The notes: generated from the sequence alone by a model not told the origin. Counted from the stretch's first letter, positions 11,066-18,467 are shown. The stretch: DNA of 21,811 bases from a virus (IMGVR_UViG_3300000571_000003:1-21811); one strand, 5' to 3'. Numbers and translations are program-made.

Positions 11066-11101
11066 AAAGAAGGGGGTACAGAAAAATACCCCCCCTTTTT
11101 T
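11066..11101 (-). terminator. Putative intrinsic terminator after the head genes
   Basis: GGGGGTA/TACCCCC stem followed by TTCTTT on the - strand; A/T tract on the other side. Confidence 0.65.
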
Positions 11102-11105
11102 ATTC

Positions 11106-11807
11106 CTACTCAATAATACCAGAAATACGAACGAAATTACTCGTAGAGTCAGTAAGAGTAGCAGCGTCTTTAACAAGAACAATAATGTCCTCATCAATAC
11201 CACCAGTTATCTTACCTTCACCATTTGCAAAACGAATCGTAGTCTCTGTTGTATCAACAGAAAGCGCTCCATAAAGCTGTGTTTCTGTTGTTTTCTTTCG
11301 CTTCCAAATTTGGACACTATCTACCGCTGCTGTTCCCATATTTACAGCATAAACAATCTCCTGAAGATGAACTCTGTGATCACTAGGAGCATCAAATTCT
11401 CTTTTCGGAGAGAGGCACGTAGCAATCTGAAGCGACGCAGACGTATCCTGTAACACATTCCAGATAGTACCACCATTTTCAGCCGTTGCTGAAGTAATAG
11501 CACCATCTAAAAGTGTAGATGCACTCGCTTTTGAACGAAGAGCATCAAGGATCTTCGCTTCCCAACGTCCTGTTGCATTAATCTGATCAACAACAGCTCC
11601 ATAGGTTGTATACGTTGCAAAGGCAACCGTATCTGTCGTTGTACTTCCAACGAGAACAATGTTTGTAGCAGTTGTAACTGTTACCGAAGTAGCAGTCTCT
11701 GTACCGAGCTTACGAAGACGAATAGCAACAGGACCATCAGTTCCTTTCTGAAGAACTGTTCCTGAAGCCGCTGCTTGACGTACAAGCAATGAATCTAAAC
11801 TTGCCAT
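11106..11807 (-). CDS. Putative virion structural (head decoration/cement-like) protein, 233 aa
   Basis: A/T/V-rich composition, first structural-looking gene after the MCP, followed by a terminator; function is inferred. Confidence 0.6.
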   Translation of the reverse strand: MASLDSLLVRQAAASGTVLQKGTDGPVAIRLRKLGTETATSVTVTTATNIVLVGSTTTDTVAFATYTTYGAVVDQINATGRWEAKILDALRSKASASTLLDGAITSATAENGGTIWNVLQDTSASLQIATCLSPKREFDAPSDHRVHLQEIVYAVNMGTAAVDSVQIWKRKKTTETQLYGALSVDTTETTIRFANGEGKITGGIDEDIIVLVKDAATLTDSTSNFVRISGIIE

Positions 11808-11828
11808 ATATATCGTTGATTAACTTTT

Positions 11829-12430
11829 AAACCGGCAATAACCCGTGCCATTTCGGGGGTAGGAATAAAACCCTACCGGAGAGAGAAGGAGCTAGATCTC
11901 TATATTTAAGATAAATTCAAATTCTTAAATATTCTTGATATTATTTTGGTAAATTCTTCATATCCGTGAGCACTTTTCATCTTATTACACGTAGAGCAGC
12001 ACGGCAAAACATTACCTACCTCATAACCGATAGAACTATCTATTCTGTCAACACCCATTGTGGGTGAATTTATTCCACAGTAGTGACATTTACTAGAAAC
12101 CAACACAGATAAGGTGTCTACAGATATACTAAATGCCAATTTTCTTAATCTAGCATTCTTTGTATAAACATAATATCTACCCCTCACTGTCTCCCTTCTG
12201 TATCTGTTAACCCTTATTTTTTGACAGTCTTTACAAATACTTTTCCTAGAGTTTTTACTGTGACTTTTATTTAATGGAAAGAATTCACGTTCTTTATATT
12301 CGTCACATACCCGACAATGCAATCTTTCCTTTAACTTTTTTTCCATAATACAGAGATCTAGCTCCTTCTTTTTGTGATTTATTGTCCCACCCCTCCGTAG
12401 GACATTCCTAGCTCAACGAGAGACTAGGAA
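11829..12430 (-). ncRNA. Unassigned structured RNA between the MCP and the next gene, with an HNH ORF in one stem-loop
   Basis: Hairpins at 12405-12430, 12383-12404, 11858-11877 and 11829-11857, plus an 18-bp perfect inverted repeat at 12352-12369/11884-11901. Manual pairing only. Confidence 0.5.
11906..12346 (-). CDS. Zn-binding HNH-type (His-Me finger) endonuclease, 146 aa
   Basis: CxxC...CxxC N-terminus; CHYCG...GVDRIDSSIGY...NVLPCCSTCNKMK. Confidence 0.8.
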   Translation of the reverse strand: MEKKLKERLHCRVCDEYKEREFFPLNKSHSKNSRKSICKDCQKIRVNRYRRETVRGRYYVYTKNARLRKLAFSISVDTLSVLVSSKCHYCGINSPTMGVDRIDSSIGYEVGNVLPCCSTCNKMKSAHGYEEFTKIISRIFKNLNLS

Positions 12431-12444
12431 AAACAAGCTGTATT

Positions 12445-12993
12445 CTACGACGTGACCCCTTTTAAAAGGGCATGTTTAGCGCTCTGCGCTCTCTGCAAAC
12501 CTACTTCACTAAGATATTGATCAACAATACCGTCTGCGTCTGGCGCTTGGATGTTGGTCTGAAGTTGCGTATCGCGATTATTCATATAGCGATAGGCAAA
12601 ACATTCCATATCAAGCATAAACGCATAACCGGCATAATCTTCGACAAACAATGGATTATGAACAATGTTCACTGTTCCAAATGCTGTCTGCCATTGGCTG
12701 ATCTTCATACCGTATGTGGTGTCCAATGGTTTTGTGAGAATCTGTCCACGGGCGATTTCATTGATTGCCTGCAAGACGACACCGCCTGCAAAAAGCATCT
12801 TTGTATCATTACCGTAGGTAAATCCTTCACGTAGGAACGTGTTCAAATCAGGAGCAGTCAATGGACCGCCTTGGTTCTGAACATACGAGTTACCACCCTC
12901 GATGAACTCTAGCATACCGCCAGTGGAACGTCGTGGATGGCTCTGTGTTCCTGTGTCTGAATTTTTTTCACTGAACCAGAATGCACGTTCAAT
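12445..12993 (-). CDS. MCP exon 6 (IERAFWF... to stop)
   Basis: The track ORF starts at TTG 12996, whose G is the intron-terminal G; there is no independent start. Confidence 0.88.
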   Translation of the reverse strand: MERAFWFSEKNSDTGTQSHPRRSTGGMLEFIEGGNSYVQNQGGPLTAPDLNTFLREGFTYGNDTKMLFAGGVVLQAINEIARGQILTKPLDTTYGMKISQWQTAFGTVNIVHNPLFVEDYAGYAFMLDMECFAYRYMNNRDTQLQTNIQAPDADGIVDQYLSEVGLQRAQSAKHALLKGVTS

Positions 12994-15900
12994 CAATTTT
13001 GTTATTACCCATTAAGGGTAGGTTGATCATTTCTGTCAACCTCTCTATGTCGCCATAGAGTTCAGACTATATCATTATCCATTTTAATGAACTTCCCTCC
13101 AACCCTATCTCTGCTATTCGCAAAAATAGACATCTTCTGTTTTGTTTCATCTGTTATGGATATACCTCGTTTAGTCGTTGAACCTGGAAATAAAACCTTA
13201 TATTCTTCAAGTCTATTTTGCTTTCTTCCTATATTGAAGTATAGACCGTTTTCTATAAAGCTTTTCTTATTAAACGTAAATTTAGCGAAAATCTTACCTG
13301 ACTTTAATATCTCTCTAGTGATTACTCCAACCCTTATACCATTATTTTGGCAGAAAGAATGAAGTTCATATACCCACAAATCACAAGCTCCTATACCTAT
13401 CTTTAGATCACATACTTTATGACCATTATAGATATGTTCTCTTGTTTTAGATACATACCCTTCACTGTCGAGTAATCCAGATATTAATTCTCTTTGTAGA
13501 ACTTTATCCCACTCAGAGAAGTCTATTGGAAGATTCTTTCTATTATGAGTGATTTCTTGAAGTATATTGCAAAACTTCACGTCACTCAATCTTGTAGAGA
13601 ACACCTTCTTATTAGCCTTAGTAAGTCTATTCTCCTCACCAATACTAACATTATTCTCACTTAACTTTTCAAGATTACTAACTGTCTTCTTTACAAAATC
13701 ATGGTCTATCGCTTGTAACATAAATGTTCTTTTGTCAGAACATATCGACCCGTCTCCTAAAAAGACTCCTAATATATACGCTAAATTTTTGTTCATATTT
13801 CCTTGGCTGCGGATTGTCCCCACTAATTCATTGTTGCTCTTTGGCAGAATTAGATACTTGGGAGTTTCCCGCAATTAAGAGTTATTTAATTATGATGTTA
13901 CCACCATAATGGACACTATTCTATCCAAAGCGTGTTCTGTTCCCTTCTTTGCTCTCTGGTAAGGAAGCATTATTGTTACATTCCATTAAAGGAATGGCAT
14001 AGTCATTTCTGCTATGCTCTACGTGTCTCCATCGTAGATCGGACTATATCATCTCCCATAGGGAGTTTAGCGTATAGTCTCTGGGGATTTAAGCACGCTT
14101 TAACAGTTTTAATTGTTCATATATCTCATGATCCCTTTCTATATAAGGGACATTTTTATATACTGCCGATCTTCTATTAAGAAACTCTTTTACAAGAGCT
14201 ACTTGTTCTTTTTTCGTTACAGTATATTCACTAATGAGATCAATGAACTTCTTTATTCGTTCAAATCCATTTACTTCCACTACCCAACTTTCTCTCCACC
14301 CTTTTTTTGATGGACGATATTTTATGTAGTGAGTAACATTGAACGATTTTAACTGTTCTGATAGATAATCTATGGTTTTTTTATCCGTGTTAGCGATAAC
14401 GACACTTGGTCTATAAGTATCTTTATAATGAGGCTGTCTTTTATCAGTCCTCTTCCAAAGACCTATATAACCTTCTCCATCAAAAAAACCTGCTATCCAT
14501 CCTATCGTACTTAGCTTTCCTGCATGATTGTCTCTATCCATAACATTATTACCTAAGAAGTAATTATGGCTTAACGAGATGTTCCAGCATATGGCTAAAT
14601 TTTACAAGGACCATTCTCTTAATCCTTTCCTCCGTAGAGGTTGGCTTCCTTCTCAGTATTACTCAAGGCAATAGTTGTCTTGAAAATCTGTTACAATCTT
14701 GACATCATTTTTAATGTCTGATAAGATTACCTTATCACTCATATTCTCATATGAGGAGCGACTATATCTTCACTAAACCTTAGTGTTCGACGTATAGTCT
14801 GTGAGAATTTAACTTAACTATATCTATGAATATCAACAAAACATGCAAATTGTGCTCTCAACCTTTTGAAACTAATTTTAACAATAAAATTTTTTGTTCT
14901 AATAAGTGTAAGGATGAATGCTGTAAGTTTTTTCCACGGCGGGTGTCAGATGAGAAAAAATGTATTATCTGTGATAATATATTTACTCCCAAAAGAGAGA
15001 GTACAAATCTATGCTCTAGAAAATGTATAGACATATCCTATAACAATAAACGTCCCAGAAAAACCGATAAGAGATATCATGAAACGTTAGCGATAAAGAA
15101 AAAATCATTAAATAAAGAACAATTAGAAATAATCTATGGTTCTATATTGGGTGATGGATTCTTATCACTACAAACAGACGGTTTCCACCGCTTATCTTTA
15201 TGTCATTCTGAGAAACAATTAGACTATTTAAAGTTCAAGATGTCTAAATTATCTATTATATTTAGACAGAAAGAACCTAATAGATTTGTAAATCCAGAAC
15301 ACCTATATAAAGATTACATCATGAAAGAGAAAGTTCAGTATCATGCTCATTCTATATCCCATCCTTCTTTAACTAATCTTTACGGAATGTGTTATAGAAA
15401 TAAGAGACAAATGATAGACAGAAGATTTTTAAATCTTATGTCTGAAACTTCTCTTCTTATTTGGTTTTTAGATGATGGATGTTTAGATAAAAGAAATAGA
15501 AATTCTATATTATGCACTAATTCTTTTTCTATTTCTGAAGTATCTGCTATAAAGAAGTGGCTTTGGCAAAGATTTAAACTTACTGCCAAAATCAGAACAT
15601 CTTCCGGATATCCAATCATCTCATTCTCTGTGGAAGAAACTCGTAACCTTGTTGATATTTTGAGGCAAAGCCCCATTTTCAATGAACTTCCTGATTGTAT
15701 GCTATATAAGCTTACAATCAGACCATATAATTAAGTTATCTTTTCTGCTGATTGACCCTATTCATAGAATTTTCAGGGTTCGCCGGTAGGTCGCCCCAGC
15801 CCGGTATCCTATCTATGACTTAACAGGTTATCCCAGCATATAGTCGAATTTTACTACACCCAGATTGGTTGTTTCAAAGTGTAGTTTGTTTGGGCAGATG

Positions 15901-18467
15901 ATCTTGTTGCGTTTACATTTCGTGCTCCAGCATTCTCTTCACTTACATTACCAACGATGAATAATCCATCGCCAGCTGCACCTGCTGCAGCAGCTGTTGC
16001 TCCATATGAGCGAGTAGCTGTAATAGATGTTGTACTTGCAATAGTCAGAACAACAAGATTTTCTCCTGTACGAGCATTCTTAATTACATCTCCAACTGTG
16101 AAGATATAAGCTGAACTTGAACCGGCACCAGTTACACTAATTGTATCAGTGCCTGCGGTATAAGTTGCACTTACGCGAGCATATCTACCACCATAGAAGT
16201 CTTCGAACCACTTAAATTCCGGATTTCCTGTAGCTCGTTTGAGCATTGAGGAACCCTTCCATCCTTTTCCATCGTATGTTTTACCTACGTTTGTAAGTAA
16301 TGTAACTAATGGATGCTTATTCTTGTGTTAACTGCATGTCGCCATGCAGATCAGACTATATCTTCACCCTTTTAAAAGGGGACTAGCGTGCAGTCGTTGA
16401 GGCTACCAAACATCTTCTTACCTTTCTATCTAACATAAAGAAGAGTCCTGCATTAAAGAAACTTATTGGTTTTACATTAAATCTACAGAATATTTTTCCA
16501 TTTTTTGTTATAAATTCTTCCATTTTTAATGGTATAACATTTAATGATATCAACATATTTCTAAATTCAATTATCCATGTAGATTTTATTCCTCCAATAC
16601 CAATTCTATACTGAAATAATCCTGGATATTTTTTTCTTTCAGTCTTACTTATCCATCCATCTCCATCCATTACACCAGCAATAAACCATTTTTTTATGTT
16701 TAATTCAGAATTTAATATCTGTATAGGAATCTTAAATTTATCTTCTGTTATTTTTTTAAAAAATTTTGCATATTCACCTATACCAAGTTTTATTACATAC
16801 CTATCACTCTTATTCCAACCTTTTCTTTCACATCTTTTTCTTAAATATGCTTTTGTAGTTGGTATAAATATTTTCCAATATTCTAATACTCTTTCAGCAA
16901 AATCCTTATCAATAACTTGAAGATTGAAATTACATTCTGTAATTGATGCATCTGTTAAATAAACACCAATTAAATAAGCAAGTTCTTTATGCTCTATTTG
17001 GTCTTGCCTGCTGATTGTCTCTAAAACAATATTTTTACACTTAGGTAATTGATCTTTCATATATACTTATTATAGCACATTCTTAACTACTTGTCAAGTA
17101 TATATACGAGAGTTTCCAGCATATAGCTAGTTTTCCTTATAATCTTAATGCTCTCCCATTATTACTAATAGGCGACCCAATAAGTCTAGGTTCAAGCAAG
17201 AAGATCTTATCTGTAGCATCGACGATTAATCGTCCCTCTGCATCAGATGTGGTAGTTGTTCGCCCTGCATTTGCTGCTGTTAATGTAATTGCCGCTCCCT
17301 GGTCATGGGTCGGCTCGGTGTAGTGATTGATATTTTCTAAGGAATAATTATTTCCTACCTACGCTCTCACGTAGGATTAGACTGGCTCATCATTGTTTTT
17401 TGAACAATGTTTCACGTACAGTCGTTGAGGTTGACACTGTTTTGGTTTTGTGTTATAATAGATATATAAAAATTAATATCTATTTTATGAACAAAACATG
17501 TAAATTCTGCAATAAATATTTTATAGCAGAGGGTAAAAATTCATGGAAAAAATTATTTTGTAATGTGATCTGCCAACAAGAATTTTGGTCTATTCAAAGA
17601 AACAAAACAGGTATAAAGAATAAACCATCTAGAGATCTTGCCAATCGATATAAGAGTAACATTCTTACTGACAAGCAAATACAAATATGCTTAGGAGGAA
17701 TGATGGGTGATTCATCTATTAATATTAGACCAAACGGAAGGTGTAGATTATTAATGAATCATTGTGAAGCTCAAAACAAATATTTAGATTGGAAGAAAGA
17801 TATATTATATCCTTTTATCATCCAAGCTAAGGCAAATATTTGTCTTAATAAAGATAGGGTAATCAATGGAGTAGAGATAAACTCTACGCCTTCCTACCAT
17901 TACGCAAGTATCCAACATCAATATTTTACAGATCTTTTTGGACTATTTTACACAACATACCTAGGAGAAAAAAGAAAGAGAGTAAATATGAACATATTAA
18001 ATATGTTACAGCCACTAGCTATTCTTATTTGGTTCCTAGATGATGGTTGCTACTATTCTCAACCAAAGCATTCATCACACACCATGTATCTATCGACATA
18101 TCGCTATACATTAGGAGAACATCAAACCATGAAAAAATGGTTCTGGCATAAATGGAGAATAGAAATGACTATTACTCCAACAAATCAGAATACTAAATTC
18201 ATATTACGTATGAATAAAGAAAATATGATTAAGTTTAATAACTTATTCTTATTCCAATTTAAGGATGATGTACCGGAATGTATGCATTACAAATTCCCGA
18301 ATTTTTAACAGTGCCTTACCTGCGGATTGTGATTATCCATGAAATTATTAGGGTTCGCTGCAAGATTACTCCATACAGTATCCTATCCATGGCCTAACAT
18401 CGGTTCCCCGCATATAGTGAAATTTTACATCCGCGCTACATTACGTTCACGGATAAACATTAGGCAT
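12445..18467 (-). CDS. Major capsid protein, 420 aa after splicing: join(18467-18449,17324-17188,16321-15878,14690-14622,13967-13923,12993-12445)
   Basis: Exons total 1263 nt and join in frame: MPNVYP-Y-YTEPTHDQG...KIFLLEP|NKHPLVTLL...NPEFKWFED...QTNYT|QIFKTTIALS...GGKD|LPYQRAKKGTEHALD|IERAFWF...SEVGLQ...HALLKGVTS. Position after portal/scaffold and these motifs resemble DUF5309/SU10-type MCPs (from recall, not searched). Confidence 0.85.
12994..13922 (-). mobile_element. Group I intron 5 of MCP (929 nt)
   Basis: P1 UGGAU/GUCCA with U.G; P4 UGCGG/CCGCA; P7 GACUA/UAGUC; P9 CUCUAUG-GCGA-CAUAGAG; ends AAAAUUG. Confidence 0.9.
13062..13796 (-). CDS. Intron-encoded two-motif LAGLIDADG endonuclease
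   Basis: LAYILGVFLGDGSI and LISGLLDSEGYV; the likely start is ATG 13796, since the track start lies in P4. Confidence 0.88.
   Translation of the reverse strand: MNKNLAYILGVFLGDGSICSDKRTFMLQAIDHDFVKKTVSNLEKLSENNVSIGEENRLTKANKKVFSTRLSDVKFCNILQEITHNRKNLPIDFSEWDKVLQRELISGLLDSEGYVSKTREHIYNGHKVCDLKIGIGACDLWVYELHSFCQNNGIRVGVITREILKSGKIFAKFTFNKKSFIENGLYFNIGRKQNRLEEYKVLFPGSTTKRGISITDETKQKMSIFANSRDRVGGKFIKMDNDIV
13923..13967 (-). CDS. MCP exon 5 (45 nt, LPYQRAKKGTEHALD)
   Basis: Bounded by the intron 4 terminal G and the intron 5 P1 U.G pair; preserves frame. Confidence 0.85.
13968..14621 (-). mobile_element. Group I intron 4 of MCP (654 nt)
   Basis: P1 AAGGAU/GUCCUU; P3 UUUAGC/GCUAAA; P7 GACUA/UAGUC; P8 CUCCC/GGGAG; P9-P9.2 hairpins; ends AAUAAUG. 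Confidence 0.9.
14089..14541 (-). CDS. Intron-encoded single-motif LAGLIDADG endonuclease (150 aa)
   Basis: WIAGFFDGEGYIG motif. Confidence 0.88.
   Translation of the reverse strand: MDRDNHAGKLSTIGWIAGFFDGEGYIGLWKRTDKRQPHYKDTYRPSVVIANTDKKTIDYLSEQLKSFNVTHYIKYRPSKKGWRESWVVEVNGFERIKKFIDLISEYTVTKKEQVALVKEFLNRRSAVYKNVPYIERDHEIYEQLKLLKRA
14622..14690 (-). CDS. MCP exon 4 (69 nt, QIFKTTIALSNTEKEANLYGGKD)
   Basis: In-frame 23 codons; the 5' boundary could be 14687 instead (see findings). Confidence 0.8.
14699..14727 (+). promoter_or_regulatory. Putative sigma70-type promoter for the antisense endonuclease of intron 3
   Basis: TTGACA (14699-14704)-17 nt-TAAGAT (14722-14727) with extended TG at 14719-14720. 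Confidence 0.55.
14826..15734 (+). CDS. Zn-finger plus LAGLIDADG_2-type endonuclease, antisense to intron 3
   Basis: Two CxxC...CSxxC modules; IIYGSILGDGFL and LIWFLDDG motifs. Confidence 0.88.
   Translation: MNINKTCKLCSQPFETNFNNKIFCSNKCKDECCKFFPRRVSDEKKCIICDNIFTPKRESTNLCSRKCIDISYNNKRPRKTDKRYHETLAIKKKSLNKEQLEIIYGSILGDGFLSLQTDGFHRLSLCHSEKQLDYLKFKMSKLSIIFRQKEPNRFVNPEHLYKDYIMKEKVQYHAHSISHPSLTNLYGMCYRNKRQMIDRRFLNLMSETSLLIWFLDDGCLDKRNRNSILCTNSFSISEVSAIKKWLWQRFKLTAKIRTSSGYPIISFSVEETRNLVDILRQSPIFNELPDCMLYKLTIRPYN
15878..16321 (-). CDS. MCP exon 3 (444 nt, NKHPLVTLL...QTNYT)
   Basis: Contains track ORF 15854..16246; extends upstream in frame to the intron 2 terminal G at 16322. Confidence 0.88.
16383..17060 (-). 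CDS. Intron-encoded two-motif LAGLIDADG endonuclease (225 aa)
   Basis: LAYLIGVYLTDASI and FIAGVMDGDGWIS motifs. Confidence 0.88.
   Translation of the reverse strand: MKDQLPKCKNIVLETISRQDQIEHKELAYLIGVYLTDASITECNFNLQVIDKDFAERVLEYWKIFIPTTKAYLRKRCERKGWNKSDRYVIKLGIGEYAKFFKKITEDKFKIPIQILNSELNIKKWFIAGVMDGDGWISKTERKKYPGLFQYRIGIGGIKSTWIIEFRNMLISLNVIPLKMEEFITKNGKIFCRFNVKPISFFNAGLFFMLDRKVRRCLVASTTAR
17069..17097 (-). promoter_or_regulatory. Consensus sigma70 promoter inside intron 2 (L5)
   Basis: TTGACA-17 nt-TATAAT with extended TG; the ATG follows 8 nt after the -10 box. Confidence 0.8.
17188..17324 (-). CDS. MCP exon 2 (137 nt, ..YTEPTHDQG...KIFLLEP)
   Basis: Open frame with no in-frame ATG after the upstream in-frame stop, so it needs splicing to exon 1; the 5' boundary is inferred from P10. 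Confidence 0.75.
17431..17459 (+). promoter_or_regulatory. Consensus sigma70 promoter for the antisense endonuclease of intron 1
   Basis: TTGACA (17431-17436)-17 nt-TATAAT (17454-17459) with extended TG. Confidence 0.82.
17487..18308 (+). CDS. Zn-finger plus LAGLIDADG_2-type endonuclease, antisense to intron 1 (273 aa)
   Basis: MNKTCKFC...CNVIC; CLGGMMGDSSI and LIWFLDDG motifs. ATG 17487 lies downstream of the promoter, whereas the track start at 17400 lies upstream of it. Confidence 0.88.
   Translation: MNKTCKFCNKYFIAEGKNSWKKLFCNVICQQEFWSIQRNKTGIKNKPSRDLANRYKSNILTDKQIQICLGGMMGDSSINIRPNGRCRLLMNHCEAQNKYLDWKKDILYPFIIQAKANICLNKDRVINGVEINSTPSYHYASIQHQYFTDLFGLFYTTYLGEKRKRVNMNILNMLQPLAILIWFLDDGCYYSQPKHSSHTMYLSTYRYTLGEHQTMKKWFWHKWRIEMTITPTNQNTKFILRMNKENMIKFNNLFLFQFKDDVPECMHYKFPNF
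18449..18467 (-). CDS. MCP exon 1 (19 nt, ATG CCT AAT GTT TAT CCG T)
   Basis: First ATG after the scaffold stop; ends at the U of the P1 U.G pair. Confidence 0.7.

Follow-up and report, generated by a model that had tools for sequence, protein, structure and literature searches.

How can a nuclease gene be tolerated inside a structured RNA when no intron carries it, and what is the role of a long inverted repeat that encloses such a gene from its start to its stop codon? These questions are raised by a 21,811-nucleotide (nt) stretch of DNA, referred to here as the window, which is the start of an 86.5-kb uncultured virus record from groundwater metagenomes (IMGVR_UViG_3300000571_000003:1-21811). 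All the genes of interest are on the minus strand. The intergenic region of 637 nt between the stop codon of the major capsid gene (12447–12445) and the start of the gene for a protein of 233 amino acids (aa), p233, contains an open reading frame (ORF) of 441 nt (11906–12346) that encodes a putative HNH endonuclease of 146 aa. A first-pass annotation of the sequence proposed that this gene had entered the loop of a 23-base-pair (bp) stem belonging to a functional RNA. The reading that we favor, with a probability of roughly 0.6, is a different one: the gene is part of a 490-nt homing cassette located in the leader RNA of p233, and the cassette's own closing stem would insulate the fold of the leader and limit translation of the nuclease.

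A long inverted repeat closes the HNH gene from start to stop

The repeat search returned two arms of 32 nt (11884–11915 and 12338–12369) that are 84% complementary and, as annotated, contain a perfect core of 18 bp (11884–11901 and 12352–12369). On the minus strand the core is extended inward by one G.U and four A-U pairs into an uninterrupted helix of 23 bp, an extension whose extent and limits were also borne out. The 5′ arm of this helix (12369–12347), of which the outer 18 nt are the perfect ones, corresponds to positions −23 to −1 and ends at the base preceding the ATG, and the 3′ arm (11906–11884) has the final nucleotide of the TAA as its first. Beyond a 2-nt internal loop, pairing resumes between codons 2–4 and the last codons, bringing the 32 positions of the arms to 27 Watson-Crick and two G.U pairs. 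The start region is then fully paired from −23 to −1 and partly paired from +3 to +9, and the 23-bp helix spans the entire ribosome-docking region upstream of the ATG.

No longer inverted repeat exists in the 86.5-kb genome at spacings of 100–2000 nt. In 30 first-order Markov simulations, the longest repeat was 13–16 bp, and when the start and stop windows of HNH genes were swapped, 0 of 4692 pairs reached 19 bp. Folding of the 643-nt intergenic RNA placed the 23-bp stem in both the minimum-free-energy and the centroid structures (z = −5.3). The arms have no second copy in the genome and were not found as a pair in viral contigs; the 16-mer of the arm core gave seven single matches in the latter, all unpaired and judged to be due to chance. 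The cassette is known from one phage, of which three assemblies are identical over 651 nt, and therefore the stem of the window is itself without variation. The DNA contigs from four sequencing runs likewise contained no variants and no joint skipping the cassette.

The 5′ arm includes an AAGGAG motif, which was considered as a ribosome-binding site and is probably not one. Only four of the 52 long ORFs of the phage are preceded by a Shine-Dalgarno-like motif, and A/T-rich runs precede the starts, which suggests that translation initiation in the host is independent of Shine-Dalgarno sites. The motif is therefore probably incidental, and in a phage lacking such sites initiation should be governed by how accessible the start region is.

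The intergenic region of related phages contains a double-pseudoknot leader

With the last capsid exon as the query, searches of viral and of metagenome contigs yielded 29 and 80 related loci. Most of them have only 118–200 nt between the capsid stop codon and p233 and represent empty alleles (about 100), whose intergenic regions share an element of ~87 nt. It begins with a pseudoknot in which the helix S0 pairs an xTCC motif with GGGAx at the start of the loop of a second helix, S1; the remainder of the S1 loop is a conserved A-rich run (ATAAATCA). These are followed by a variable hairpin (HP2) and by a second pseudoknot, in which CCCG...CGGG (stem A) is interleaved with a helix of 4–5 bp (helix B).

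A covariance model, R1, was built from the nested helices only, leaving out S0 and A, and it finds the element in essentially every locus. The paired cells amounted to 93.7% and 92.7% in two independent alignments, versus 36–51% for slid partners, and 25 of 29 and 28 of 29 pairs were changed on both sides, values that none of 500 shuffles reached. HP2, stems A and B, S0, and S1 all covary, including the S0 and A helices that are absent from R1; one S0 pair, for example, occurs as GC (27), UA (18), AU (10), and CG (9). Neither the intergenic region nor the empty alleles matched any Rfam family, at gathering thresholds or at E values up to 1. The 3′ arm end of the cassette (TAGCTCCTTCT) was aligned by the covariance model to the 5′ start of the consensus leader, a resemblance too weak to be used.

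More than 100 examples of the element are present in uncultured phages, with intact copies at, e.g., L030:5347–5434 and L214:577–664, and it occurs once in the genome studied here. In several relatives, a second copy precedes a second, tandem p233 paralog (L018:5480–5567, L027:5388–5478, L165:3957–4043, L167:3911–3999, L182:3980–4067, L193:3961–4046, and L203:3888–3978). As each tandem p233 copy has its own element, the element belongs to p233-type genes as their leader and not to the capsid gene as its tail. A role as a translational operator, or in stabilizing the 5′ end of the mRNA, may be its function. In several phages HP2 is expanded, giving elements of 135–169 nt with no ORF inside (L169:1107–1256, L201:3070–3224, L225:3081–3249, and others), and HP2 therefore acts as a peripheral site tolerant of insertions.

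The cassette interrupts helix S1 of the leader

In the window, the leader is split in two, and R1 matches it in two pieces, at 12374–12390 (model positions 16–32) and at 11829–11893 (32.9 bits, E 3e-6). The 5′ half (12374–12404), delimited by the R1 match and by alignment of the healed sequence with the empty alleles, consists of the 5′ strand of S0 (TGTCC, 12404–12400), the 5′ strand of S1 (12397–12388), the 3′ strand of S0 (GGACA, 12387–12383), and the A-rich loop, and ends with CAC (12376–12374), the first three bases of the S1 3′ strand. The 3′ half (11831–11883), supported by the R1 match, by covariation, and by a fold in which the S0 bases were masked, starts with the lower part of the S1 3′ strand (CTCTCCG, 11883–11877) and continues with HP2 (11877–11858) and the second pseudoknot, composed of stem A (CCCG, 11857–11854, with CGGG, 11845–11842) and helix B (GGCA, 11849–11846, with TGCC, 11837–11834).

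The host sequence thus runs to ...AAATCAC (12374) and resumes at CTCTCCG (11883); in the empty alleles the loop, ...AAATCA(C), continues directly into the S1 3′ strand. Comparison with about 100 such alleles defines an insert of 490 nt (11884–12373), and once it is removed the S1 5′ strand, CGGAGGGGTG, pairs at 10 of 10 positions. From its 5′ end, the insert is made up of an AAAA linker (12373–12370), the 18-nt arm core, GTATT, the 441-nt ORF, ATAT, and the second 18-nt arm core, with the outer end of the 3′ arm being the end of the insert itself. The flanks, CAC-AAAA and CTCTCC, contain no target duplication, and there is no transposase, in agreement with the first-pass annotation. Its statement that the gene lies outside any intron and has no group I core also held, since 11808–12444 had no match in Rfam even at E values up to 1.

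The proposal that the nuclease had invaded the loop of a functional RNA was confirmed in part. A structured RNA was indeed invaded; the insertion point is inside a helix, in the S1 3′ strand three bases past the loop, and not in a loop. The empty alleles that the proposal called for exist, but none of them has a hairpin at the insertion point, and the 18-mer of the arms left no trace in any of the approximately 100. In all of them S1 is uninterrupted. The 23-bp stem is therefore not a stem of the host RNA; it either arrived with the cassette or evolved on it. When the S0 bases were masked, the minimum-free-energy fold of the 643-nt RNA again contained the 23-bp stem and took the form of a three-way junction, composed of the lower part of S1 (GGAGGG/CUCUCC), its upper part (GUG/CAC), and the stem, followed by HP2 and helix B.

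Closing stems recur among the cassettes of this locus

HNH genes are present at 10 occupied loci, eight of which have complete cassettes, and closing stems were found in seven of these eight, in at least three different registers. In the window, the arms (23–32 nt) are outside the ORF. Four cassettes located between the capsid stop codon and the leader have their arms over the start codon and the last codons: L008 (223 aa; stem of 26 nt, 92% complementary), L007 (224 aa; 29 nt, 86%), L216 (217 aa; 27 nt, 89%), and L226 (196 aa; 27 nt, 93%). The stem of L030 (241 aa; 19 nt, 95%) is in a homologous position and has an unrelated sequence. In L160 (146 aa; 22 nt, 91%), the cassette is at the tip of HP2, which retains its pairs (ATAAC/GTTAT), and no other part of the leader is disrupted. 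The eighth cassette, L185 (136 aa; of a type shared with L006 and L016), is between the capsid stop codon and the leader and has no closing stem.

Among related cassettes the sequences of the arms differ and their pairing is kept, with clear compensatory substitutions among the stems of L008, L226, and L007. The covariation anticipated for the stem is therefore seen in these relatives. The HNH protein of the window is only 31–35% identical to all the others at the locus, and its stem is therefore an independent instance. Equivalent stems that close the whole gene have evolved in independent cassettes at a single hot spot.

Such stems are not found in the relatives of the nuclease elsewhere. 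In 65 other PacI-like HNH genes from diverse viral contigs, the longest start-to-stop helix was at most 13 bp, as in the swapped controls. The idea of a trait of the whole nuclease family was discarded when the RNAduplex energies of 66 PacI-like genes were compared with those of swapped pairs (medians of −17.25 and −17.1 kcal/mol, respectively; p = 0.12). With no family-wide excess, and the longest-helix test in agreement, the stems appear to be specific to this locus, being characteristic of the cassettes at this position of the capsid transcript rather than of the nuclease family. When 282 ORFs from the related loci and from this genome were ordered by the energy of the duplex between their start and their end, HNH cassettes took ranks 1, 2, 4, and 8. 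A further candidate, at G000 47084–48013, is a replication-initiator-like gene whose signal came from a neighboring terminator-like hairpin, and it was rejected.

The third and smaller type of HNH gene at the hot spot (L185:1489–1899, L016:4568–4850, and L006:4575–4851) has no start-to-stop stem. The copy in L016 looks truncated or decayed, and the start region of the one in L185 has only a 13-nt complement, in the middle of the ORF.

The enclosed gene encodes a predicted PacI-like nuclease

The annotation of the ORF as an HNH nuclease was upheld by its match to phrog_1035 ("endonuclease VII"; 6.3e-23) and by its predicted structure. Several further HNH PHROGs were also matched, and no Pfam HNH model was. 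In a phmmer search against the PDB, the best sequence match was PacI (0.023). The AlphaFold model (predicted local distance difference test, pLDDT, 83.9) has the beta-beta-alpha-metal fold, and its best PDB match by Foldseek was R.PacI (3ldy_A; E 3e-5, probability 1.00), with the Gme HNH nicking endonuclease (4h9d) in second place.

In an alignment of 13 sequences, C87, C90, C117, and C120, which form a CxxC...CxxC zinc site, are invariant, as are Y108 and N112/N121. The canonical catalytic histidine is absent, and D100-R101, likewise invariant, is found instead; the motif reads DR-x6-Y-x3-N, and the alignment with PacI covers GVDR-D---GY---N. In the active site of PacI, a tyrosine replaces the histidine (PMC5714182), and that of the predicted protein fits the PacI type and not the canonical HNH one. 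R.PacI and the PacI-like His-Me finger proteins (group 20 of Jablonska et al. 2017) also share with it the size (142 versus 146 aa), the CxxC...CxxC site, the lack of a catalytic histidine, and the conserved tyrosine in the omega-loop. The two proteins are only about 22% identical, however, and R.PacI is a restriction enzyme, whereas the gene described here is on a mobile phage cassette. No close homologs of the HNH protein of the window were found, the best being 36% identical.

The gene is an ORF separate from its neighbors, and the position between the capsid gene and p233 is polymorphic for its presence, with about 100 empty and 10 occupied alleles. On sequence grounds, it is a free-standing homing endonuclease cassette with a predicted nuclease. 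A second phrog_1035 gene (2.8e-19) is present in the same phage, outside the window (G000 40585–41151, minus strand; L074:586–1152), immediately upstream of a MetK-like gene. A weak inverted repeat of 19 nt (79%) spans it from start to stop, and the 3′ arm of this repeat begins at the stop codon.

How the stem may act, and how it compares with known systems

We infer that the stem forms in vivo and has two effects. On the late capsid transcript, pairing of the arms would push the 441-nt ORF out into a side branch, so that the interrupted S1 and both pseudoknots could still form, as a three-way junction. A functional RNA would thereby tolerate the insertion, although the cassette is no intron. 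In the two cassettes located inside the leader, those of the window and of L160, the stem would in this way also make the insert a self-contained branch. The second effect would be on translation: with positions −23 to −1 and the codons just past the AUG double-stranded, initiation would be blocked, and the nuclease would seldom be made, for instance from nascent RNA in which the 3′ arm does not yet exist. The maturation gene of phage MS2 offers an analogy, as a long-range helix occludes its start and it is translated only on nascent, unfolded RNA. The 3′ arm of the cassette would be transcribed about 450 nt after the 5′ arm, which by this analogy would leave a short interval for translation. 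Unlike the arrangement described here, the partner strand in MS2 is an upstream part of the leader and leaves the ORF unenclosed, and the molecule is the genome of an RNA phage and not a mobile cassette.

Control of homing endonuclease genes by hairpins at the start site is established in T4-type phages, in which these hairpins limit the synthesis of the nuclease and also protect the folding of the host intron, or the folding or expression of the host RNA (PMC2988022). As in I-TevI, I-TevII, I-TevIII, segB, and Aeh1 mobE, the gene of the window is on a long, abundant polycistronic transcript and has its start in a stable helix. The T4-type hairpins, however, are short and local structures of the 5′ untranslated region, relieved by a late promoter inside the hairpin, whereas here the strand that pairs with the start region is 441 nt further downstream, at the stop codon, and the whole ORF is looped out. 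Shine-Dalgarno sites, moreover, are not used by this phage. A sigma-70 scan, which may not suit this host, returned no promoter-like site on the minus strand, and the 5′ arm, ending 1 nt before the ATG, leaves no room for an internal promoter.

The overall architecture is similar to that of the intervening sequences (IVSs) of the 23S rRNA of Coxiella burnetii, Leptospira, and Salmonella, which are ~0.4–0.5 kb long and have a terminal stem of 20–30 bp with a small ORF in the loop. That of Coxiella, in a helix of 23S rRNA, has 444 nt and a terminal stem of 28 bp with the ORF in its loop; it is cut at mid-stem by RNase III, and an AG-rich region upstream of the ORF is removed (PMC4990558). In both cases the insert is in a helix of a functional RNA and forms a self-contained side branch, with the host RNA remaining functional, as it would here. 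The differences are that the host RNA is an mRNA leader, that the ORF encodes an HNH nuclease and not a four-helix-bundle protein of the S23p family, and that excision by RNase III belongs to the rRNA elements, whereas the present one is known from DNA sequence. The ORFs located in the peripheral loops of group I introns, of which the neighboring capsid gene of this phage also has examples, are similarly extruded by a closing helix while the RNA core folds. Unlike them, the cassette has no ribozyme core (P3–P8), no splicing, and no rejoining of exons; a noncoding leader tolerates the branch.

Alternative explanations

Several observations weigh against the reading that we favor. One complete cassette type (L185, with L006 and L016 of the same type) has no start-to-stop stem. 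The type B cassettes are upstream of the leader, and therefore insulation of the leader is not a general reason for their stems. The cost of disrupting the leader is assumed. A perfect duplex of 23 bp also lends itself well to cleavage by double-strand-specific RNases, and the outcome would then be different. Finally, the phage is known from DNA contigs only, and this applies equally to the explanation that follows from such RNases, in which the stem would be processed by RNase III or another enzyme of this kind: the ORF would be excised and silenced, and the pieces of the leader would stay unligated and functional. A near-perfect duplex of 23–32 bp, about two helical turns, would suit such a cut, the architecture is close to that of the Coxiella IVS with its mid-stem cleavage by RNase III (PMC4990558), and the 7-bp lower part of S1 could hold the two halves of the leader together afterwards. 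The cut would, however, part the 5′ half, with S0 and S1, from the p233 mRNA, a hazardous step if the leader is needed in cis, and the type B stems have central mismatches and are located in coding sequence. We consider processing of this kind unlikely as the full explanation, and note that it could operate alongside insulation and translational control.

The arms could instead act at the level of the DNA, as terminal inverted repeats of an element resembling a mini-transposon, or as a hairpin or cruciform of single-stranded DNA in homing or replication. One boundary of the insert is also the outer end of the 3′ arm and the 5′ arm is 4 nt from the other boundary, and a small element of 490 nt with a single nuclease ORF resembles ultra-small phage mobile elements, such as the MPMEs of mycobacteriophages. 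Against this, the insert has none of the marks of an insertion sequence, a miniature inverted-repeat transposable element, or a mini-transposon, namely a target-site duplication, a transposase, or multiple copies with conserved ends; it is present once in the genome, and viral contigs yielded no pair of arms elsewhere. The arms vary in sequence while their pairing is kept, the opposite of what is expected of ends recognized by a protein, and both arms of the type B cassettes are in or across coding sequence. Variable arms that keep their pairing, together with the lack of a target duplication, second copy, or transposase, favor a role for nucleic acid structure, most simply that of the mRNA. 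The mismatches on the sense strand point in the same direction: in the seven stems there are eight G.U and two A.C. The first-pass annotation had taken its G.U pair, which forms on the transcribed strand only, as a sign of structure in RNA, and the 8:2 bias weakly favors this, although it is not significant by itself and is to that extent a further point against our reading. Taken together, we regard an explanation at the DNA level as quite improbable.

The first-pass annotation in its literal form, with the stem as a preexisting hairpin of the host RNA and the nuclease in its loop, has a real counterpart in L160, where the HNH ORF is at the tip of HP2 and the HP2 base pairs are retained; HP2 is, moreover, expandable, to 150–169 nt in some leaders. 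For the window it is very improbable, as HP2 is intact downstream of the insert (11877–11858) and the about 100 empty alleles have no hairpin at the insertion point, a continuous S1 3′ strand, and no 18-mer. A repeat arising by chance or as a neutral by-product of insertion, with no function, would be in line with a cassette found in one phage and in three identical assemblies. It is scarcely credible given that the repeat is longer than those of all the simulations and swapped controls, is placed exactly at the borders of the ORF, recurs with compensatory change in six other cassettes of the locus, and is absent from 65 homologous genes elsewhere.

Implications for homing genes in functional RNAs

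The cassette combines two known kinds of arrangement, the control of homing endonucleases by RNA structure and the insertion of an ORF in the loop of a structured RNA. What is new is the host RNA, the exact insertion sites within a helix and within a hairpin, and the recurrence of stems at one locus as opposed to the family-wide controls. Homing endonucleases are thought to persist in essential sequences only by means of introns or inteins, and otherwise to be located between genes. We put forward, tentatively and as a speculation that we would not ourselves bet on, that the cassette represents a spliceless intervening sequence of an mRNA leader, in which the leader is the homing target and the homing endonuclease gene is made harmless by its own stem, either through branching or through RNase excision with the halves held by S1. 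If true, introns and inteins would be joined by a third route by which such genes come to occupy functional sequences.

The favored explanation, with a stem that insulates the leader and silences the gene, would provide a simple design rule, open to testing, for the tolerance and silencing of selfish genes on a phage's most abundant late transcript, and would connect the homing elements of phages with the ORF-bearing intervening sequences of rRNAs, which have long gone unexplained. The comparison also revealed a previously undescribed and widespread double-pseudoknot leader RNA, which can be studied through its natural interrupted and uninterrupted alleles.

Neighboring genes

The major capsid gene upstream of the cassette is of the SU10_MCP family, as its last exon (12445–12996) matches the Pfam model PF17236 (E 1.9e-28). 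It is divided into at least five exons, mapped by tblastn with the capsid protein of an intact relative to about 17325–17188, 16318–15878, 14690–14622, 13967–13923, and 12993–12448 (region 12994–17340). LAGLIDADG genes are present inside its intervening sequences, and Rfam group I (RF00028) matches, all sub-threshold, were found in these sequences only (13043–14878). Judging from these matches, the capsid exons are separated by group I introns bearing LAGLIDADG genes. A near-identity search of the phage GenBank records with positions 11100–13000 returned no match.

The gene served by the leader, p233 (11106–11807), had no match in Pfam or PHROG. Its structure model (pLDDT 80) is all-beta, with two sandwich-like domains, and the fold search gave weak matches to beta-sandwich proteins of the PDB (TM about 0.2). 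The protein is probably a virion protein, and may be a capsid decoration protein or another component of the virion.

Between the capsid stop codon and the leader, at 12407–12428, the minus strand also contains a 5-bp hairpin (CCTAG...CTAGG). In many relatives the hairpin at this position is stronger, as with the perfect one of 14 bp at L008:4581–4621, and this structure may be a 3′ stabilizer or a terminator of the capsid mRNA.

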